Virus record (IMG/VR): IMGVR_UViG_3300033998_000134
Location: 1-54,554 of that record
Source of the DNA: a virus
Lineage: Duplodnaviria > Caudoviricetes
Reading direction: 5' to 3' (one strand)
DNA: 54,554 bases
The position numbers were made by a program, and so were the translations under genes. The notes under the pieces were generated by a model. It searched no databases and had not been told where the DNA came from. It worked only from the letters and a program-made list of their open reading frames with translations. Shown here one piece after another: positions 4,401-34,100 of this stretch (position 1 is the first letter of the stretch; every line of letters begins with the position of its first letter).

Positions 4401-7400
4401 GAATAATCCTCCAGACTTTGCCCCTCTTTTTGCCGTGGCATCGGCGCATAAGCCGATTCCGCTATTCCTCCGACACCGGATACTCCTCCATAGCCTGGAA
4501 GAACAGTTCCGTCCTCCTGTTGTGGCTGATAGGAGACTTCTCCCGGCCGATTAATTCGTTCGCCCTTCGGTATGCCTCTCTGGTTATCTCGTAATGCATC
4601 CGCATCCGATTTTCTCCCGCTCCGTACTCGAGCACCACTTTGACTAAATTCTCCTTCTGTGACATAATCTAAATATTTTATGATTACCGGTAAAATGACA
4701 TCTGCTTCCTTTATTCTTGCAATATCTCTCCCCGTGAAAATTCTCCCTACGGCAAATGCAAGCAATTCGTTTACTTTTTCCTCTTTATCGAGCTTATGAT
4801 AGTACGCATGAAGATTTGCGTTCAGAAAATTATCGTCGAGGTTGTTTATCAAAGGTACTAATAATTCTTTTTTGTCCGATATCCACGCATGAAAATTCTC
4901 ATGCGCCCACACTTCTGCTACATTTTTCGCCTTATCGAGCGAAGACGAATTTAAGTATATTACACCATTAAAGAAAACTCCGTTAAGCTTGGCTTTGGTT
5001 TTCTCGGCCATGCTAAGCAATTCACTGTCGGCCCCCATCATCCGGAGGGATTCAAATACGTCTTTTTTTGTTGGGAGCACTACTGTGTCAACCGATTTCC
5101 TATACCTGCTCTCCAGCTCATCGACCATATCCGAAACGATTTTCGTCTTTTCCTGTGGCGTTTTTGCGGCGTTAAGAAGGGTGTCGATATCTTCACTCAT
5201 CTGCGCTATACTGAATAACGGCATCCCGTTTTCGGCATATCCGCGCATATCGTCCGTAACAGGAATAGACTGTTGCGCTCCTGTTTCCGGCAATTCGATG
5301 GTCTCTATATCTACGCCGAAAGGTTTGCTGATTTTTTTTACGACGCTCGGAACGATTTGGTCATAAAACGCCCTCATTCCTTCGCCGCCAACTTTCAAAT
5401 CATCGCCACGAAAATCGCCACCCCCTTCGTTGATCGCTTTTAAGGCAATTTCTTTCCCTACATAGTCGGAAAGGTTTTCTTTTGTCGCGGTTGCTATATT
5501 CTCAAGCTCTTGCCCCCCTTTTGGAACAGCCATAATGGAATACTGCCCGTTCTCTTCGTCTATAACGATTCGATCCACCTGCTTGCTCAGATTGTACCTA
5601 TCGGCCTGTTGCTCTCCCGTTGTCCATGCAATTCGGTCATAACCGTTCTCGGCTGCATATCGCATCATTCTGCGGAATGCAAGGGTTATCCATTGGTCGG
5701 TTTTTTTGAAAGGCATATCTGGCACCTTATATCTTTCGGAAATGATTGAAAGCTCTTTCATTTTCTCTAACACCTTGCTGTCCAATTCTACATCATCAAG
5801 CGCTTTCTGATAATCCGAATTTGCCTTGTCGTATTCCTTTTTTATTTCCTCCATTCTTTGCTGAATGGAATTATAATCCTTGTTATTTCTTACCTTTTCA
5901 AGCTCCCTGTTTAATTGAATATACTCTTTATTATTCCCCAATAACCATATTTCTGAACCAAACATCTTCTGTTCCGTAGATCCTGCCCCGACGGGTAGGC
6001 CTAATTCATGCCTTCTGTTAATAGCTTTTTCAAGATTTTTATTCGATTCTTCTAAGGCTTTTTCAGCCCTCAATACATCTTTATCCTTCCCTGTTTTAAA
6101 CCCGTGTCTCTTTCCTTGCTGCGCCCAGTCTGATTGTATCTCTTCCAGGAATAAAATTCTCTCACCGTTTGCTGTCCTTTCATCGAAACGGATGTGTGCA
6201 ACGATATTAGGTTCATCGAAATGGAGTGAACGGAATTTTTCATCGCTTATATCTACATCATCGTTTACCAAATCAGAAAATTCACGACGTTCTGATTCTG
6301 TCATTTTCTCTTTTGCTCTTAACTCTTCATATCTTCTCCTCTTTTCTGATATTTTATGCGGCATTGTCAACAACAATTCGTTGTATTTTTCGCCACCAGG
6401 AAGTACGTAATAGGAATATTTGGTGCTATCTTCTCTCGATCTATCTAACTCGCTAAGTTCTTCATAAACAAGATCCTCGTAGTATAAGTCCATCGCATCG
6501 AACATTTTCTTATAATCACTATATCCGTTTTTTGCAGCTATCTCGTTTAATATATCTTCATCAGCATCACCTTTATAATATTCATCCCATCGCTCGATCG
6601 GTTCGTCAATACCAAACTTTTCTCTCGTAGCTATATCGGCATTGATATAAATATCTTGTTCTCTTTGTATAATTTCCCCCTCAGTAAGTGGTTCATTTTT
6701 TTCTTTCCTTACTTCACTTATTTCGATCTTATTTTGGTTGATCCAGTCCTGTATCTCGGCTTTTGTTACCGATTTACCGGTGAAGGTTTCATCCCATCCC
6801 ATCCAGTCCAACTCGGCCTGTTTAGCCCCGTTTTTCAGCAGCATGGCTTTGAATTGTTCGGGTGTACCTTTCTCCTGTTTAATCTTCTCAAGCGCATCTT
6901 CAACGGTAGAATAATATCCGGCTTCATCAACTACATGGAACATTAATCCATTGTAAGTAGCACCCGGAACGTTTTCGGATTGACGCGGCTCATATCCGGC
7001 TTGTTCATCAGCAAGTAGCCCTAATTCATATAGACTTTCATAATTATTGATGATATCGTCATCTTGCTTTATCGTTATCACATCGAGGAGGTCGGCTCCG
7101 ACGATGTTTAATGCCTTTTTGATCCTCTTAAAGTCCAACTGAATGCCGTTCGTAGAAAGGATGACGTTCTCTCCGTGTCTCCCTACTTCTTCGAGTAGTA
7201 TTTTGTTTAGCTCATCTGTTGATACGTTGCCGTCGATAAGTACATACCTGTTGATATTATTCGCTCTGTCAATAATCAGGGCATGAATCTTATCTACCGT
7301 TCCGCGTTTTTGTTGGCTTAATAACCGGGCAACGTCAACCGAACTCTTTATTTTTTGTTTTTCCGAGAACGGGGTATATAGCATTTGCCTGTCAAATGAA

Positions 7401-20194: not shown

Positions 20195-20365
20195 TTATTT
20201 GCTTGTAGGTTGTTTTACCTCGTCCCATTCACTTTCGGTGATCACGTATCCGCACTTTTTGCAGATGTGCATGTAGGTATAAAACGGAAAAGTCTTTCTA
20301 ACTCTCGCGTTTTGTGTGTTACGGCATTGTGGACATCTTATCCCCGCATATCTTCCTGTTTTCAT
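20195..20365 (-). CDS. Small Zn-ribbon protein
   Basis: CPQC...HICKKC; likely start MKTGRY at 20365. Confidence 0.6.
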   Translation of the reverse strand: MKTGRYAGIRCPQCRNTQNARVRKTFPFYTYMHICKKCGYVITESEWDEVKQPTSK

Positions 20366-20379
20366 TTTTTTATCTTTTA

Positions 20380-20625
20380 TTATTCGCTCCATAAACCTTG
20401 TATATGCCCGCAATTATCACACTTAAATCCGCCAACCCAACATTCACCGCTTTCAACTTTGGCCTTTTCTTTTACGTCATTGTTGTATGGCTCATCATCC
20501 GGATCATAACAAAAAATGCCCGTGATTAAAGCTGTTCTACAACCACACTTTTCGCATTTTTGAGAATCATAGCCTTTACTACCATCATACAAATAATCAT
20601 TGTCTTTATCTTTAATTGTTTTCAT
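20380..20625 (-). CDS. Small Zn-ribbon protein
   Basis: CEKC...CDNC motifs. Confidence 0.6.
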   Translation of the reverse strand: MKTIKDKDNDYLYDGSKGYDSQKCEKCGCRTALITGIFCYDPDDEPYNNDVKEKAKVESGECWVGGFKCDNCGHIQGLWSE

Positions 20626-20880
20626 ATTAGTAAGTTTTAAAAAATTATTTTTTATTTTATCAACGAAATCTTTCCGTTATTTTTAAGAATAAACCTCTTT
20701 TCTCCAGGCACATAACAATATCCTCGATATTTACAACATCCTTTTATCCCATTTCGCGGCTCATAATCTTCACATAACCTGCCACAAATCGTTTCTTCTT
20801 TCGTACCAACCTCTCCGGAAGCTTTACAAAAGAAGCAGTCCGCATCCAACTCTCTTATTGCTTCCGAAATATATATTTCG

Positions 20881-21495
20881 TTATCAGCAACCTTATGAAG
20901 CCGACAACTCAACACCTGTAAGGGCATAATAAAGATTTTGAAACTGATGAACAAATTGCAAGTTTGCATCATCATATAATAGATTTGTGCAATTCCCAAA
21001 AACAATAAGACCAAATGATATATAACCGTGATCAAAACAAATATAATAATTGCTATTACCTCTGTCTTTTGGTTCGTAATAAATTTGGTCGCCATAATCA
21101 TCGGTTTTAACAAAACCCAATTTTTCTAACCATTCTCCAGATAATTCTATCGGATTGGCATAATCTGAATACTCTGTCATTGCATGGACTTCTTGTCCTT
21201 CAACAAACATTTTTTGACCGAATTTTGTATCAAAGCCATTTTCAACGTATTCAATAAAATCGACACGTAAAATTTTACCACCCCTGTCTTTTAGGTAGTT
21301 GCCAATTCTAATTTCTTTTCCTTGTATCATTGTTTATAATTTAATAATTCGACTGAAAGAAAGGCTGCTGATAACATTGTATATAAAAAATGCGGGTTTT
21401 CGTGTTTGCATTTCGACTTGTTTTTTTAAACAAGTGCTTCTCCACTTCGGAAACCTCCGTTTCTTTACTCCCGCACTTCTTATATACAAGTACCG
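20881..21495 (+). mobile_element. Integron-cassette-like insertion carrying one ORF and an attC-like site
   Basis: GTT at both junctions (20880-20882 and 21495-21497). The left end GTTATCAGCAACCTT is 14/15 complementary to AAGGCTGCTGATAAC (21361-21375). Confidence 0.75.
20893..21330 (-). CDS. Cassette cargo: hypothetical protein of a Bacteroidetes-phage type
   Basis: 145 aa with EIRIGNY...PIELSGEWLEKLGF...VHQFQNLYYALTGVEL pattern; fills the cassette. Confidence 0.75.
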   Translation of the reverse strand: MIQGKEIRIGNYLKDRGGKILRVDFIEYVENGFDTKFGQKMFVEGQEVHAMTEYSDYANPIELSGEWLEKLGFVKTDDYGDQIYYEPKDRGNSNYYICFDHGYISFGLIVFGNCTNLLYDDANLQFVHQFQNLYYALTGVELSAS

Positions 21496-21497
21496 TT
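21361..21497 (+). repeat. attC-like imperfect inverted repeat
   Basis: GATAAC-ATT-GTATATAAAAAATGCGGG ... CCCGCACTTCTTATATAC-AAGTACC-GTT, with an inner CTTGTTT/AAACAAG hairpin. Confidence 0.7.
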
Positions 21498-21589
21498 CAA
21501 TCCTCGCTCTTTCATCTCGGAAATCAAATACGTTTTTGGATATGCCATCTCTGCATTTATTTCGTTACTGAAGTATAATTTTTCTTTTT

Positions 21590-21694
21590 TCATGACTTAA
21601 ATCTGTTTTTGCCGTGATTATTCCATCCGGCAACGATCATAAGAATAGACCATATAAACAAAAGAATTAAGACTACAATTTCAGCTGGTTTCAT
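21590..21694 (-). CDS. Small membrane peptide (34 aa)
   Basis: MKPAEIVVLILLFIWSILMIVAGWNNHGKNRFKS; ATGA overlaps with both neighbours. Confidence 0.55.
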   Translation of the reverse strand: MKPAEIVVLILLFIWSILMIVAGWNNHGKNRFKS

Positions 21695-22281
21695 CCTTGT
21701 ATTTTGTTTAGATAATTTTCTAAGTCATCGATTTTCTCCTTAAGCGCACGAATAACCCTCGCTGCTGCAAAATCGTTTATCCATTTAGGATCATCTAAAA
21801 ATGTTAAGATAGTCGCTTCGTCTCTGTTCATATCGTAAAGCATTTCATCTACTGAAGCCTCTATGAAGTCTGTTAATTTAACAGATATAAGTTCTCCGTA
21901 ACTATCAATTACAATGTTTCCTTTTTCATATTCTTTGATTACTTTTTCTTTAATGCTGTCCATCTTACTATGAATTTTCCCAATAGCATCCTCATATCCT
22001 TTTCGATAACCTTTTTCCAATAATTCTTCTATAGAGCTATCACCGAACCCACACTTTTCCCAATCGTATTCTGCAACTTCTGTTTTTATCCACTCTTCCT
22101 TTTCTTTAGTGTCTATATTTAGATATGTTTGAGCGGACTGTTGTGCTCGAATGTTTTTCAACTCACAAACAACCAAATCAATAGCCATACCTATGGAAGT
22201 AGGTGTCTGCATTTCTATATCGGCGCCCTTTCGCCATTTGTTGTGCTGTTCAAGCACATTTATTGCCTCATCTATCGTCAT
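21691..22281 (-). CDS. Hypothetical protein
   Basis: Likely start MTIDEAINVLEQHNKWRKG; acidic, possibly two fused modules. Confidence 0.6.
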   Translation of the reverse strand: MTIDEAINVLEQHNKWRKGADIEMQTPTSIGMAIDLVVCELKNIRAQQSAQTYLNIDTKEKEEWIKTEVAEYDWEKCGFGDSSIEELLEKGYRKGYEDAIGKIHSKMDSIKEKVIKEYEKGNIVIDSYGELISVKLTDFIEASVDEMLYDMNRDEATILTFLDDPKWINDFAAARVIRALKEKIDDLENYLNKIQG

Positions 22282-22437: not shown

Positions 22438-24375
22438 CTAAAAAAATGTTTTTTGCAGTAAATATGGTTCGATGTTTTTATTTGCGATATTGCAATATTC
22501 CTTGCTCATCTCGCTTCCGATAAATTTCCTATTAGAACGAATTGCGCATATAGCCGTAGTACCAATCCCCATGAATGGGTCGTATATCACACCTCCCTCA
22601 GGGCATCCTGCCAAAATGGGTATTTTAATCAAGTCTTCATTATAAGCCGCATAATGATTTGCGCTGGTTCCTTTGGTGGGTATATCCCAGAAGTCTGACA
22701 CATCACCCGGATTCGGCCCTTTTGTTTTGCTTAATTCTTCATTAAGTCGGTCATATCCTTTGTATTCTCTTTCCTTGCTTAGGTTATTGATTGACGAAGT
22801 AGAATATTCACCAGTGCTATACTTGTTATTATTACTGCCTCTCAATTTTCTTTTCACGCTTCCAATATTCACATTATTCCGTATTATATCCAGATCGAAA
22901 TAATACTTTTCTTTTTTTACCATGAAGAAAAAATATTCATGCTTCTTGCTAAACCGATCAGTCACAGATTCAGGCATGGCGTTACAATTATGGGTTAATA
23001 TGCCACTTGCTAATGCAAATAAATGTGACTCATCTTCAATTTCAATATCCCAAAATTTACGCCCATTACTCTTATTAATGGCAATAATTTCATTGTTGAA
23101 TTTATTATTAAGGTGTTTTGTTTTTTCAAACCTTATTTCTCCTCTATATCCATTAAATGATTTATCTCCATTTTTAAATATGCTTCTCTTAATACGAATA
23201 GATGTGTTTAATCTTGCGCAAATTGTTCTCAAATCATCAACAAAATATTTATTATCTGTAAATCCTAAACGATATCTATTATTTTTTTCATCATAATTTG
23301 CATCACCATCTAAATAAGATTTTAATACAATTTCTATGAATTTATTATCTCTTTGCCAGAATGATGTGGAAAAATGTTTACCTTTTGCTGTGTTACCAAC
23401 AATAAATTCATCAATTATGGCATTTAATATCTTACCACTCATATTGATAGTCATAGTATTACCTTTTAGATAATAATTATTACATTTGCCATTAAATAGT
23501 TTTGCAATTTTATTACAATTATCCAATCTTTCTTTTTCCTTACAATGAGAAGCTATTTGTATTATATTTCCACTACGACTACCCTCTGCCATATATAATC
23601 CAATAAACCATGGCACCAAATAATTATCTAAAATATCTTCTTCTCTATTGTTATCTGGCAATATTGTTGATTTTAAAATATCGCCAACTTTTAATTCACC
23701 GGCTCTCTTAAACCCATTTTGTGTCGGGAATATATGTTCTTGAGTACATGGAATTTTTTCTCCGCTTCTTAATACTATTTCTAATGGATTTTTAAAGTTT
23801 TTATTTTCATAAAAACATTTTACTTTGCTCCATTTTTCACCAGTCCATAATTCAACGTTTTTTAATCTTGCAAGGTCTTTAATAGTTTGAGGGAAAGTGC
23901 CCTTACTTGTTTTGGCGTATAATTTAAGTCCACCACCCAAACACTTAGCCCAGATGATATCATTTCTTACAATCCATCCTCTATCTTCGCACCCTATTGC
24001 AAAGCGATGCGGGATGAGAAGAAGGCATTTACCCGGCATTGATTTGCCTTTTACGAGGTTTCCACTTGTAATTCTGTGTGTTCCTCGAGAGATACCGAGA
24101 TTTGATCCGCTTTGCGTTGAGTAGGTATCCCCCAGATTTACCCATACAGTGCCGCTATCTTTTAACTTAGGATATATGGCATCCATAAGCGACCAAAGAT
24201 GCTCCAAATACTCCTGAAATGTAGGCTCTAACCCCCATTGTCCTTCGTATCCATAATCTCTCAATTGCCAATAAGGAGGGCTTGTTATTACGCAATCGAC
24301 ATAGTTGTCCGGTATTCGTGACAGCGTATCCAAGCAGGGCTCATTGTAAATCCTATTTTCTTCTATTGTTTTCAT
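22438..24375 (-). CDS. N4/N6 DNA methyltransferase (beta class) interrupted by an intein
   Basis: VITSPPYW catalytic motif, DPFMGIGTT SAM-binding motif and WIVRNDIIWAK; start MKTIEEN overlaps the resolvase stop (ATGA). Confidence 0.9.
   Translation of the reverse strand: MKTIEENRIYNEPCLDTLSRIPDNYVDCVITSPPYWQLRDYGYEGQWGLEPTFQEYLEHLWSLMDAIYPKLKDSGTVWVNLGDTYSTQSGSNLGISRGTHRITSGNLVKGKSMPGKCLLLIPHRFAIGCEDRGWIVRNDIIWAKCLGGGLKLYAKTSKGTFPQTIKDLARLKNVELWTGEKWSKVKCFYENKNFKNPLEIVLRSGEKIPCTQEHIFPTQNGFKRAGELKVGDILKSTILPDNNREEDILDNYLVPWFIGLYMAEGSRSGNIIQIASHCKEKERLDNCNKIAKLFNGKCNNYYLKGNTMTINMSGKILNAIIDEFIVGNTAKGKHFSTSFWQRDNKFIEIVLKSYLDGDANYDEKNNRYRLGFTDNKYFVDDLRTICARLNTSIRIKRSIFKNGDKSFNGYRGEIRFEKTKHLNNKFNNEIIAINKSNGRKFWDIEIEDESHLFALASGILTHNCNAMPESVTDRFSKKHEYFFFMVKKEKYYFDLDIIRNNVNIGSVKRKLRGSNNNKYSTGEYSTSSINNLSKEREYKGYDRLNEELSKTKGPNPGDVSDFWDIPTKGTSANHYAAYNEDLIKIPILAGCPEGGVIYDPFMGIGTTAICAIRSNRKFIGSEMSKEYCNIANKNIEPYLLQKTFF
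22987..23943 (-). mobile_element. Intein (319 aa) with LAGLIDADG homing endonuclease
   Basis: Starts CLGGG, block B CTQEHIF, LAGLIDADG-like FIGLYMAEGS and LKSYLDGDAN, ends ILTHN followed by a +1 Cys; visibly more AT-rich than the flanks. Confidence 0.92.
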
Positions 24376-24863
24376 ACTTTTACCTTGATTTTTAATTTTG
24401 CGTGAATAGCCACCAGCAGGACTGCATCTCTCACATCCTGATTGCACCGCTTGATCGGCGCCAGTCCGTTGTATTGAAGTATATAGTTCAGCTCTTCGTG
24501 CGTGATCTTCCCGTCGCGTCCTTTCCACCCCTTATTGAAAGGTTTCTGCTCTATAACCTCAAGCCCGTAATGCTTTGCCATCTCAACGATATGCCGCCCT
24601 GTTTGGTGGTTGCTGCCTACATTCTTTGCGATCTTCTGCGCTCTTACTCCCTTTGGGTCGTGATAGTTGCTCTTCTCGTTCAGCCATCCCGCCTCTACTA
24701 CTACCAGAACGTCGCCCGGGAGTGTTGCAAGCAAATACAGTTTCTCGAGTAGTTGGGGAAACGGAAGTGCTTCTGCCGAAAGTTCATGGTCTCGGTATAT
24801 ACATATACCGCTCTTTCCCGTGTCCGGATCGATACCGACAATGATTTTATTTGGTTTATCCAT
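24372..24863 (-). CDS. RuvC-like Holliday junction resolvase
   Basis: IVGIDPDTGKSG, VVVEAGW and NQDVRDA acidic motifs. Confidence 0.75.
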   Translation of the reverse strand: MDKPNKIIVGIDPDTGKSGICIYRDHELSAEALPFPQLLEKLYLLATLPGDVLVVVEAGWLNEKSNYHDPKGVRAQKIAKNVGSNHQTGRHIVEMAKHYGLEVIEQKPFNKGWKGRDGKITHEELNYILQYNGLAPIKRCNQDVRDAVLLVAIHAKLKIKVKV

Positions 24864-32528: not shown

Positions 32529-32727
32529 ATCAATAAAACAGTATGCCGGCAGGCTTAAAACCGACAAAGCATTGCTAAGCTATCTTGACACTGAAGATTT
32601 GGTTGCCAGGTATGATCCGTGCGTGACGGTGGATGGTGTTACGGATGAATGGCTTTCCGGGTTTAAAAGGTATGCGGGAGAAAAGCATGCAAGGAACGTG
32701 AGGAAGGTGTTGAATCAGCGAATGTAA
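32515..32727 (+). CDS. Miniature integrase core-binding-domain-like protein
   Basis: Three blocks resemble, in order, blocks in the neighbouring integrase (see findings). Confidence 0.5.
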   Translation: MLLVESIKQYAGRLKTDKALLSYLDTEDLVARYDPCVTVDGVTDEWLSGFKRYAGEKHARNVRKVLNQRM

Positions 32728-33836
32728 TCCAGAACCTTCCTGTTCGCCTGATCAACTTTTTTCAGGTTGAAGTTCACGTACACCGATGTCACTCTCGATC
32801 CATACTCATGGCCCAGCGCTTCGGAGATAATATCCCTCGTGATGTCTATACCTGCGGCTATCGATGCCCATGTGTGTCGTGCATGGTAAGTTGTCAGGTC
32901 CTGGCAGATAATCCCTGCGTCGTCCTCTATCAGCTTCAACGCATAGTTTATACCCCTTTTAAAACCGTCGTAGTTTTTATACATCCTTAGGAAGGATACA
33001 AGCAATTCGTCATCCTGATATCTGTCGATGATTGCTTGTGCTTCCGGTTCAATCTTGACAGAATAATGCTTGCTTGTTTTCATCCTGGTATATTCCAACC
33101 GTCCGTTCTTGATGTTTGCTTTTTTTGCGTGTAGGAGATCCGTCAGATTAATGCCGATAAGGTAAAAGGATAACATGAAACAATCGCTGAACGGTTTCCA
33201 TTTGCCCTGATAGTCTCTCACGCGTCTCAAGTCCGCAACGGATAGATCCCGGTGCTTGGTTTTTTCTTTGAGTATTTTGAATTTCCTGAAAGGGTAGTTC
33301 CGGGTATATTCTCTGTCGATTGCGAAGTTGATCACTGCCCGGATGTTTCTCATGTGAATTGCTTTTGTATTTACGGCCAGATCCATTGAATCGTAAAATC
33401 GCTGCAACCATGTTACCGTGATATCGTCCAGGAGTGGATCATCCGTAATTTTTCTCATGGTCTCATCGTACAATCGCTTCGTATTCCCGCGTTTTGTATC
33501 GATAAATTCCCGGAATACGCTTCGTAAGGTGTGCGAAGGTAATACGTCATTGCTCAGATATGAACGGAGCTGGGCATCTGTTAGTGATGGTAGGACACCC
33601 TCCAGTTCGAGAGACAACAGAATCTTGTCTATTTGCGTCTTTTTGTTATTGATTGCCGCATTCTTCGCCCTGCTGTTTGCCCCCTTCGTGATTTGCCTTC
33701 CTTTCCATTCGGACGCAAGGCAGGAGATTCCGGTATTAATCATGAATCTTGATCGGTGGGTTATCATTATTTTAATTGGATATTCACCGTTATCTTTACG
33801 TCTTCTTTTGTCTAAATACAATATTGAATTTGCCAT
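32715..33836 (-). CDS. int: Tyrosine integrase (Bacteroidetes type, with arm-binding and SAM-like domains)
   Basis: YLDKRRRKDNGEYPIKI arm domain, GINLTDL, YTRMKT, TTYHARHTWASIA and ISEALGHEYG..TSVY. Confidence 0.93.
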   Translation of the reverse strand: MANSILYLDKRRRKDNGEYPIKIMITHRSRFMINTGISCLASEWKGRQITKGANSRAKNAAINNKKTQIDKILLSLELEGVLPSLTDAQLRSYLSNDVLPSHTLRSVFREFIDTKRGNTKRLYDETMRKITDDPLLDDITVTWLQRFYDSMDLAVNTKAIHMRNIRAVINFAIDREYTRNYPFRKFKILKEKTKHRDLSVADLRRVRDYQGKWKPFSDCFMLSFYLIGINLTDLLHAKKANIKNGRLEYTRMKTSKHYSVKIEPEAQAIIDRYQDDELLVSFLRMYKNYDGFKRGINYALKLIEDDAGIICQDLTTYHARHTWASIAAGIDITRDIISEALGHEYGSRVTSVYVNFNLKKVDQANRKVLDYIR

Positions 33837-33848
33837 ATAGTTATTTAA

Positions 33849-34100
33849 TTTGACACAATATTCGACACACAAATTTGCATATAAAACGGCAAATAACGGT
33901 AAAAACCCGATATGTTATTCAACATACGGAACATAAAAAAAGCCCATGCATTGCTGCAAGAGCCTTATTTTCAATTGTCGGGATGACTGGATTCGAACCA
34001 GCGACCACACGCCCCCCAGACGCGTATTAATGTGGTTTAAAGAGTTGTTATACAATATATTTCGGTGTCCTCATTTTTCATTTGCACGATAAACGACACA
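33849..34100. other. attP region with candidate arm-binding repeats
   Basis: TTTGACACAATATTCGACACA (33849-33869) and TTTGCACGATAAACGACACA (34081-34100) flank the core. Confidence 0.55.
33976..34026 (-). other. attP core = 3' half of tRNA-Pro(GGG)
   Basis: Minus strand reads TACGCGTCTGGGGGGCGTGTGGTCGCTGGTTCGAATCCAGTCATCCCGACA: anticodon arm with GGG, T arm and 3' acceptor strand, but no 5' half; adjacent to int. Confidence 0.88.

Follow-up and report, generated by a model that had tools for sequence, protein, structure and literature searches.

Integrons are the textbook bacterial system for gene capture and are defined by their IntI integrase. Their attC sites are 57-141 nt long, with an unpaired central spacer and extrahelical bases. 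As far as we are aware, integrons are considered rare both in Bacteroidota and in phages. In T4-type phages, small accessory genes flanked by repeated stem-loop modules (PeSL) are reportedly shuffled between phages, as Arbiol et al. are said to have described in 2010. This shuffling is thought to rely on homology between the modules.

IntI1 needs only GNT/GTTRRRY and uses secondary sites (PMC10127599), and cassette insertion at attG sites is known (PMC12901181, citing Loot 2024). Through these two papers the secondary-site work can be followed back to Recchia & Hall 1995 and Francia 1993. Integrons are present in Bacteroidota (PMC8618304). A survey of 10,705 phages used classical attC models to identify 17 CALINs and tested recombination by IntI1 (Qi et al. 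2023, PMC9892861).

The window analysed here, meaning the whole stretch of 54,554 nt, is a complete 54.5-kb phage genome with terminal repeats. We consider it probable that this genome carries an integron-like cassette, inserted at a secondary AAC/GTT site with a recombinase acting in trans; no recombination has been observed.

A cassette within a phage gene

The genes around the insert are read on the minus strand, hereafter gene sense. An earlier note on this DNA had described a 615-bp unit with GTT at both junctions, a left end complementary at 14 of 15 positions to an inner box, and a long imperfect hairpin, and all three descriptions are borne out. The unit lies at 20881-21495, with GTT at 20880-20882 and 21495-21497, and its cut point is ambiguous over three nucleotides, the GTT/AAC triplet at either end. 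Its left end, GTTATCAGCAACCTT (20880-20894), faces AAGGCTGCTGATAAC (21361-21375) with one mismatch, and that mismatch becomes a G:U or G:T pair on the gene-sense strand. The two 20-nt arms of the hairpin are 90% complementary. Folded as minus-strand RNA the hairpin reaches -42.3 kcal/mol (z = -3.9), a stability that none of 200 shuffled sequences equalled, and the computed fold brings both junctions side by side.

Along the gene-sense strand the unit is made up, in order, of a 5-nt spacer, the hairpin, one unpaired base, the box GTTATCAGCAGCCTT, a 30-nt leader, a gene of 145 codons and the box AAGGTTGCTGATAAC (Table 1). The completed site would span about 150 nt and has asymmetric spacers, 5 nt on one side and 1 nt on the other. 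Scored with a covariance model of 11 members, its own copy among them, the site in the window reaches 133 bits (E = 3e-31). With the filters off, this model found no second site in the 54.5-kb phage. The earlier statement that there is no array thus holds for this phage, which has one site only, and fails for the family, which forms arrays elsewhere. The share of sequence words from 20300-22000 was 32-100% in several DNA runs and 10-14% in six RNA runs, figures that are uninformative about excision, expression or habitat.

Table 1. Parts of the cassette and of the gene that surrounds it, with positions in the window
Feature	Position	Strand	Basis or remark
3' part of split gene, EIYISEAIRE...ISLIK + stop, 75 codons	20652..20879	-	ORF list; matches L002 6100-6327 at 90.8%
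Terminal box R'', AAGGTTGCTGATAAC (gene sense), overlaps cargo stop codon and ends in downstream junction AAC	20880..20894	-	Sequence
Cargo gene, 145 aa, phage family phrog_10066, function unknown	20893..21330	-	PHROG E = 8e-22
Conserved leader, from R' to cargo start codon	21331..21360	-	Alignment
Inner box R', GTTATCAGCAGCCTT (gene sense), complementary to the cassette's own 3' end	21361..21375	-	Kept in 13/13 loci found with the 21-mer
Long imperfect hairpin, L-type stem 21470-21489 / 21377-21396, variable interior with two small hairpins	21377..21489	-	Fold and covariation
Unpaired 5-nt spacer GGTAC (gene sense), from crossover triplet to long stem	21490..21494	-	Alignment and consensus fold
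Upstream junction triplet AAC (GTT on +)	21495..21497	-	Crossover within or beside it; triplet repeated at 20880-20882
5' part of split gene, MKKEK...ERGL, residues 1-33 with shared AAC codon	21498..21593	-	ORF list; matches P0002/P0003 residues 1-33, and L002 6001-6097 at 94.8%

The insert interrupts a phage gene. As first noticed from the letters alone, the 5' half stops four codons past the junction (the frame at 21480-21593, minus strand, ends GLN-GTCI-stop), and removal of the insert rejoins an open reading frame of 108 aa. A protein search with the 75-residue 3' part returned two proteins of 108 residues that carry no interruption. One (P0003) reads ...ERGLNEIYISE... across the junction, exactly as predicted; the other (P0002) reads ...ERGLREIYISE... 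and is 87% identical over the 3' part. Failure of such homologues to align across the junction and absence of an allele without the insert had been named in advance among the joint grounds for rejecting the proposal. The homologues do align, and a related phage contig (L002) carries the intact gene at 6001-6327 with nothing between the halves and 91-95% identity on either side. Its triplet at the insertion point is AGA, not AAC, and it differs from our record by whole genes on both sides, as is seen in mosaic phage early regions. A blastn search with 20300-22000 against the phage collection gave no match. These observations confirm, far beyond chance, that the 108-aa gene is genuinely interrupted by the cassette; the direction of the event is inferred. 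Translational bypass was considered and rejected, given 615 nt with in-frame stops.

The cargo had been thought to look like a phage gene, and its PHROG assignment agrees (Table 1). Homologues without hairpins stand free in Cellulophaga phages, and there were no close relatives among the viral contigs scanned. The structure model (pLDDT 84) has no counterpart in the PDB at E <= 1e-3, only a weak resemblance to eIF5A/HEX-1, and the sole Pfam match is a weak one to SymE, below cut-off. Three homologues are annotated too long upstream, where gene callers translated the 15-nt box and the leader, and this translated segment gave us the 21-mer used as a query for the family.

A family of sites in phages and Bacteroidota

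The 21-mer, which adjoins the hairpin, occurs at ten metagenome and three viral loci with differing cargos. The order of parts is the same in all 13: the flank closes with (A/T)AC, a G comes next, and the spacer, the long hairpin, the box, the leader and the gene follow. The unit ends in ...GCTGATAAC in the 12 loci with a terminal box, which was not found in the remaining locus (L100). The hairpin therefore flanks many other genes, in these loci as well as among the matches to the covariance model, an outcome on which the earlier proposal depended. The spacing of the parts is regular: in each of the seven other cassettes measured, 43-54 nt separate the start of R' from the start codon, and the distance from the stop codon to the cassette end is exactly 13 nt in each of six complete ones. 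Among six other cargos, five have matches in phage protein families, YopX twice and DUF7352 among them. An exact-match search with a 19-mer from the boundary of R' and stem reached four viral loci, all of them chance coding matches without the shared hairpin.

The same cassette can be followed between contexts. An activated-sludge contig (L099) carries it at 98.7% identity over 615/615 nt and has no similarity to the window in 300 nt on either side. A different cassette, of 472 nt, occurs in three unrelated contexts at 96.4-97.7% identity. In such shared cassettes identity begins and ends at AAC triplets; AAC opens 48 of 49 family sites, G follows in all 49, and GTTA after the stem is kept in 11/11 aligned sites. 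By comparison of copies, these cases show that the cassette moves between unrelated flanks and that its boundaries fall exactly at the AAC triplet. The cut of each unit is at AAC|G, 5' of the hairpin, as on the bottom strand of an attC.

Could homologous or illegitimate recombination, of the kind that moves morons or PeSL genes, produce the same picture, with the hairpin no more than a terminator or RNA processing site? The conserved leader and 3' end of phage cassettes could supply homology, and phage early regions are mosaic, as the contig with the intact gene illustrates. The target, however, has only AAC in common with the cassette, and neither that contig nor P0003 has a site or homology there. 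Boundaries are identical to the nucleotide in independent contexts, and the structure covaries, its strand being fixed with respect to the crossover and not with respect to transcription. We regard such a shuffle as very unlikely.

The consensus fold was derived from an alignment of 11 copies, and the covariance model was built on the same alignment. Compensatory changes affect 11 of the 19 pairs of the consensus stem, and two pairs are invariant G.U. Since these can form only on the gene-sense strand of the phage, they mark the folding strand. Computed with DNA parameters, the greater stability falls to the model strand at 24/29 phage and 13/20 bacterial sites, a bias that is modest in bacteria. 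That a folded single strand is the recombination substrate is our inference.

Applied to the window and to 97 loci fetched for other reasons, the covariance model gave 79 matches at E <= 1, among them tandem arrays in phage contigs, each with its sites on one strand. Five phage records, including two complete genomes, were searched whole and gave 10, 8, 5, 8 and 6 sites. Because two of the arrays (L080 and L081) nearly duplicate each other, the phage counts lack full independence and are somewhat inflated. Within the arrays, each cassette has complementary boxes behind its hairpin and at its end (7/7 by eye in L080, and likewise in a bacterial array). This complementarity, read from the DNA, follows the logic of integron cassettes, in which a released circle would possess a single, complete palindromic site.

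A degenerate form of the 21-mer occurred at 24 loci in genomes. Five of these gave full-length model matches, all labelled Bacteroidota: Flavobacterium, Kaistella, Sphingobacteriaceae, Crocinitomicaceae and Bacteroidota bacterium SSA2, the last a complete chromosome. The other 19 are short chance matches without a full-length model match and were set aside. In SSA2, 149 of 150 scored candidates match, on one strand and within about 500 kb. Iterated nhmmer over 558 kb extended this to at least 341 sites between 3,475,217 and 3,982,500 (507 kb), with a median spacing of 847 bp. We know of no larger array in print. A duplicated cassette in it is delimited by AAC|G at both ends, and the array terminates in an R''-type box followed by sequence without hairpins. 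Among 151 sampled Bacteroidota genomes, in each of which just 21 candidates were scored, 66 have at least one site at E <= 1e-5.

The earlier note had described the cargo as inverted relative to an attC. Counting the strands of open reading frames shows that this inversion is real and general among phage cassettes. Of 31 phage intervals, 29 have their longest frame on the folding strand, where the cargo gene of the window also lies, whereas 15 of 18 SSA2 intervals have it on the other strand. The side of the crossover is identical in phage and bacterial sites. The same crossover side combined with the opposite gene strand indicates that the cassettes of phages constitute a separate pool, with the hairpin ahead of the gene.

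In phages the mRNA is of the same strand as the fold, with its G.U pairs, and this raises the possibility of an intron-like element that is removed from RNA, the hairpin and the helix closing over the reading frame bringing the splice sites together and the 108-aa gene remaining functional. Adjacent junctions in the fold and an in-frame removal would suit it. No Rfam family, however, matches anywhere in the window at gathering thresholds, no intron is detected at E <= 10 on 20500-21800, and six related loci have no match at E <= 1. Only about 165 nt of non-coding sequence are available, too little for a group I or II core. Removal of the cassette in silico restores a long frame in the window alone (34 + 75 codons) and in none of nine other contexts. 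The gene-splitting insertion is thus the exception, and the element is unlike an intron; a DNA element usually located between genes fits the result. Bacterial array genes on the opposite strand, and tandem sites beside a recombinase, also count against RNA-level removal, which we find hardly tenable.

The recombinase question

A tyrosine recombinase of 371 aa (P0047) is encoded 3.3 kb beyond the last site of the SSA2 array (G006). In four of five further genomes, relatives of it and an array are separated by 3.6-11.6 kb, with the relative orientation unchanged; two of these array-linked relatives are interrupted by stop codons. The fifth genome (G085) has a full-length relative 160 kb from the nearest listed site. 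On the phage side, one contig (L175) encodes a 394-aa relative beside five sites. Arrays and a linked tyrosine recombinase, for which the earlier note had suggested looking, thus both exist in Bacteroidota genomes and in at least one phage. The connection of recombinase to site rests on adjacency alone, and among 13 viral loci with relatives of P0047 only one has sites nearby, the other 12 giving no model match within 6 kb.

P0047 scores 210.8 bits on the archaeal XerA model NF040815 (cut-off 220) and 178.1 on TIGR02249 (cut-off 265). Aligned with VchIntIA, it has no counterpart to IntI residues 206-246, which we take to be the region of the IntI-specific additional domain. Enzymes without this domain are not counted as IntI by the criterion of the field (PMC4889954, PMC9668308), and the insertion is not fully conserved in an 'integron-like' subgroup (PMC8138268). 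Judged by model scores and alignment, the array-linked recombinase is Xer-like and not a classical IntI.

These features bear on whether the window holds a classical integron cassette, with an ordinary attC, a canonical host IntI and an insertion of attG type. The AAC...GTT boxes, the one-sided crossover, the arrays and the tyrosine recombinase at the array end would all be expected of one. So would the small demands of IntI1 and its use of secondary sites (PMC10127599), the known attG insertions (PMC12901181) and the recombination of phage CALINs, including one of a Polaribacter phage, with IntI1 (PMC9892861). Against this, the complete SSA2 chromosome, which carries the 507-kb array, has nine TIGR02249 matches, none of which reaches the cut-off. 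The array-linked enzyme scores best as XerA-type and has nothing opposite the IntI residues, and phage cassette genes are on the folding strand. We consider the classical system unlikely to be at work here.

An alternative without any tyrosine recombinase would be a single-strand transposon of IS200/IS605 (HUH) or PATE type, or another hairpin-guided element. Insertion 3' of the short fixed word AAC without target duplication recalls such elements, as do the subterminal hairpin, the strand asymmetry and the prospect that precise loss would restore the target. The cargo, however, has no Y1 transposase signature, its SymE match being below threshold, and each unit has one hairpin, not two. Tandem arrays with chained box complementarity, and the tyrosine recombinase at array ends in SSA2 and in four of the five other genomes, speak further against a transposon of this type, to which we give very little credence.

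The insertion in the window remains best explained by an integron-like cassette, and the question is which enzyme served it. The sole tyrosine recombinase of the phage is a 385-aa integrase (32715-33872, minus strand). It has no NCBIfam match, and its comparison with P0047 (19.6 bits, E = 0.14) marks it as unrelated; no P0047-like protein was found in this phage. PF00589 is absent from five array-bearing phage records, and two complete array-bearing phages have no tyrosine recombinase at all. Because the phage lacks an enzyme of the P0047 family, the recombinase was most likely supplied in trans, and supply from a host array or from another phage is the simplest reading. This is inference, as neither the enzyme nor the phage host has been identified. 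The earlier proposal, in which an attC-like site recreated on circularisation lets single genes move among Bacteroidetes phages by means of a recombinase in trans, is supported by the aligned homologues, the empty-site relative, the family, the arrays and the linked recombinase; reversible excision and the acting enzyme have not been demonstrated.

Proposed mechanism and comparison with known systems

The order of events we envisage begins with a free circle, whose ends would join into one palindrome of R'' box, 5-nt spacer, hairpin, single nucleotide and R' box. The gene-sense strand of this completed site would fold, and a tyrosine recombinase would exchange one strand at AAC|G (G|TT on the opposite strand), between the R'' box and the hairpin. 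The partner would have been a bare AAC inside the 108-aa phage gene, without a second such site, and this secondary-site insertion would have split the gene. The enzyme may have come from a host chromosome with an array and an Xer-like recombinase, or from a co-infecting phage.

A bolder interpretation is that these sites represent a second, independently evolved kind of integron, with an Xer-type recombinase that lacks the IntI domain, widespread in Bacteroidota, and with a phage branch whose gene-sense genes behind a standard leader serve to trade ready-to-express accessory genes. In this phage the R'/R'' helix, stacked on the hairpin, would rebuild the full site and place the junctions next to each other on single-stranded DNA, so that the solo cassette could excise precisely and act as a reversible switch of the 108-aa gene. 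We offer this as speculation and consider it unlikely, with excision itself conjectural.

Whatever its origin, the integron logic of folded single-strand sites, AAC/GTT crossover and arrays occurs here with a different lineage of recombinase, and phage genomes carry sites of the family together with typical phage accessory genes. The insertion in the window forms a natural before-and-after pair, from which the cassette boundaries and the crossover triplet of the entire family are fixed, and it shows that ordinary coding sequence is within reach of the system. Should bench work confirm it, the system would be a route of gene flow between Bacteroidota and their viruses, and would provide a new set of structure-specific recombination sites.

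Neither this family of sites nor its Xer-like recombinase turned up in the full texts consulted, supplementary files excluded, and the same holds for gene-sense phage cassettes and for an array as large as that of SSA2. Measured against integron cassettes and attC sites, the family has the outer boxes ending in AAC and beginning with GTT that pair in an imperfect palindrome, and its crossover falls at G|TT, equivalent to AA|C on the folded bottom strand, to a single side of the hairpin, with the exact bond ambiguous over 3 nt. The bottom-strand bias is present too, modestly so in bacterial sites. The rule that a gene lies upstream of its own attC and antisense to the folding strand is, in contrast, not met by phage cassettes. 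Nor does the window, with its single site, hold a whole integron platform of array beside recombinase and attI, and P0047 does not pass the test for IntI, a score above the TIGR02249 cut-off together with the additional domain.

PeSL cassettes differ in that homology is replaced here by a 3-nt match and a fixed cut point. Phage CALINs (PMC9892861) likewise comprise attC-like sites and cassettes without an integrase, including those of the Polaribacter phage, which infects Bacteroidota. The available part of that paper, which excludes the supplementary tables, describes no such site family, no arrays of 5-10 sites, no Xer-like enzyme and no solo cassette that splits a gene. Sedentary chromosomal integrons such as the Vibrio superintegron share with SSA2 a big, co-oriented, homogeneous array that is bordered on one side by a recombinase, has an attI-like end and carries genes running antisense to the folding strand, and in some of them the integrase is co-directional with the cassettes (PMC4889954, PMC8352920). 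They differ from it in that the SSA2 recombinase lacks the IntI domain, the SSA2 array reaches 507 kb with at least 341 sites, and its site family is shared with phages.

The closest likeness is to integron cassettes at secondary or attG sites. There too, a lone cassette with a folded palindrome joins a bare GTT/AAC precisely and without target duplication. What distinguishes the present case is the site of about 150 nt, the gene on the folding strand, the phage gene as target and a likely enzyme that lacks the IntI domain. The element in the window thus works like a secondary-site integron cassette, yet fails both the test of IntI membership and the rule of gene orientation.

Cassette architecture and the interrupted gene

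Cassettes carried by phages share a fixed plan, observed in the window and at six other loci (L093, L094, L095, L102, L103 and L105). The start codon lies 43-54 nt past R', the complementary box that follows the hairpin, and the stop codon falls exactly 13 nt short of the cassette end, where it overlaps R'', the partner box there. Many cargos that are unrelated to one another end in a C-terminal ...ELSAS or similar sequence.

At the junction between the cargo gene and the 3' half of the split phage gene, a 153-aa frame starts within the 3' part of the cargo gene and crosses into that half; a 91-aa version of it is the called protein P0001. Because the frame runs through the junction, a chimeric product of cargo and 3' half is possible, with no evidence of its production. 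Six metatranscriptome runs, which derive from biogas, sludge and aquatic samples, each contain 10-14% of the words sampled from window positions 20300-22000, a share that does not show which part of the stretch is represented.

Surrounding early region

The early region is mosaic on either side of the 108-aa gene, independent of the cassette. Compared with the window, the empty-site relative (phage contig L002) has three extra genes upstream of this gene and a different gene content downstream.

Separately, we noted a DNA methyltransferase-like ORF in the window. Read by eye, its methylase motifs are broken by a block ending ...THNC, and on this judgement alone it appears to contain an intein-like insertion.

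Bacterial array and phage-borne recombinase

In the chromosome of Bacteroidota bacterium SSA2 (G006), at least 341 hairpin sites, all co-oriented, form one array that spans 507 kb and takes up roughly 12% of its length. An Xer-like recombinase lies at one end, separated from the attI-like array end by three opposite-strand ORFs. A 394-aa relative of this recombinase is encoded on a 74.7-kb phage contig (L175), with five sites just upstream on the same strand, making this contig a candidate for a complete phage-borne system.

Locations of the features described
Feature	Location	Strand	Loci or basis
Junction-crossing 153-aa frame	window 20652-21113	-	
DNA methyltransferase-like ORF, 696 aa	window 22438-24528	-	translation
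Three extra upstream genes	L002 4880-6000		
Downstream segment of differing content	L002 6330-7245		
SSA2 array	G006 3,475,217-3,982,500		L135-L162
Five sites and recombinase relative	L175 1-6870
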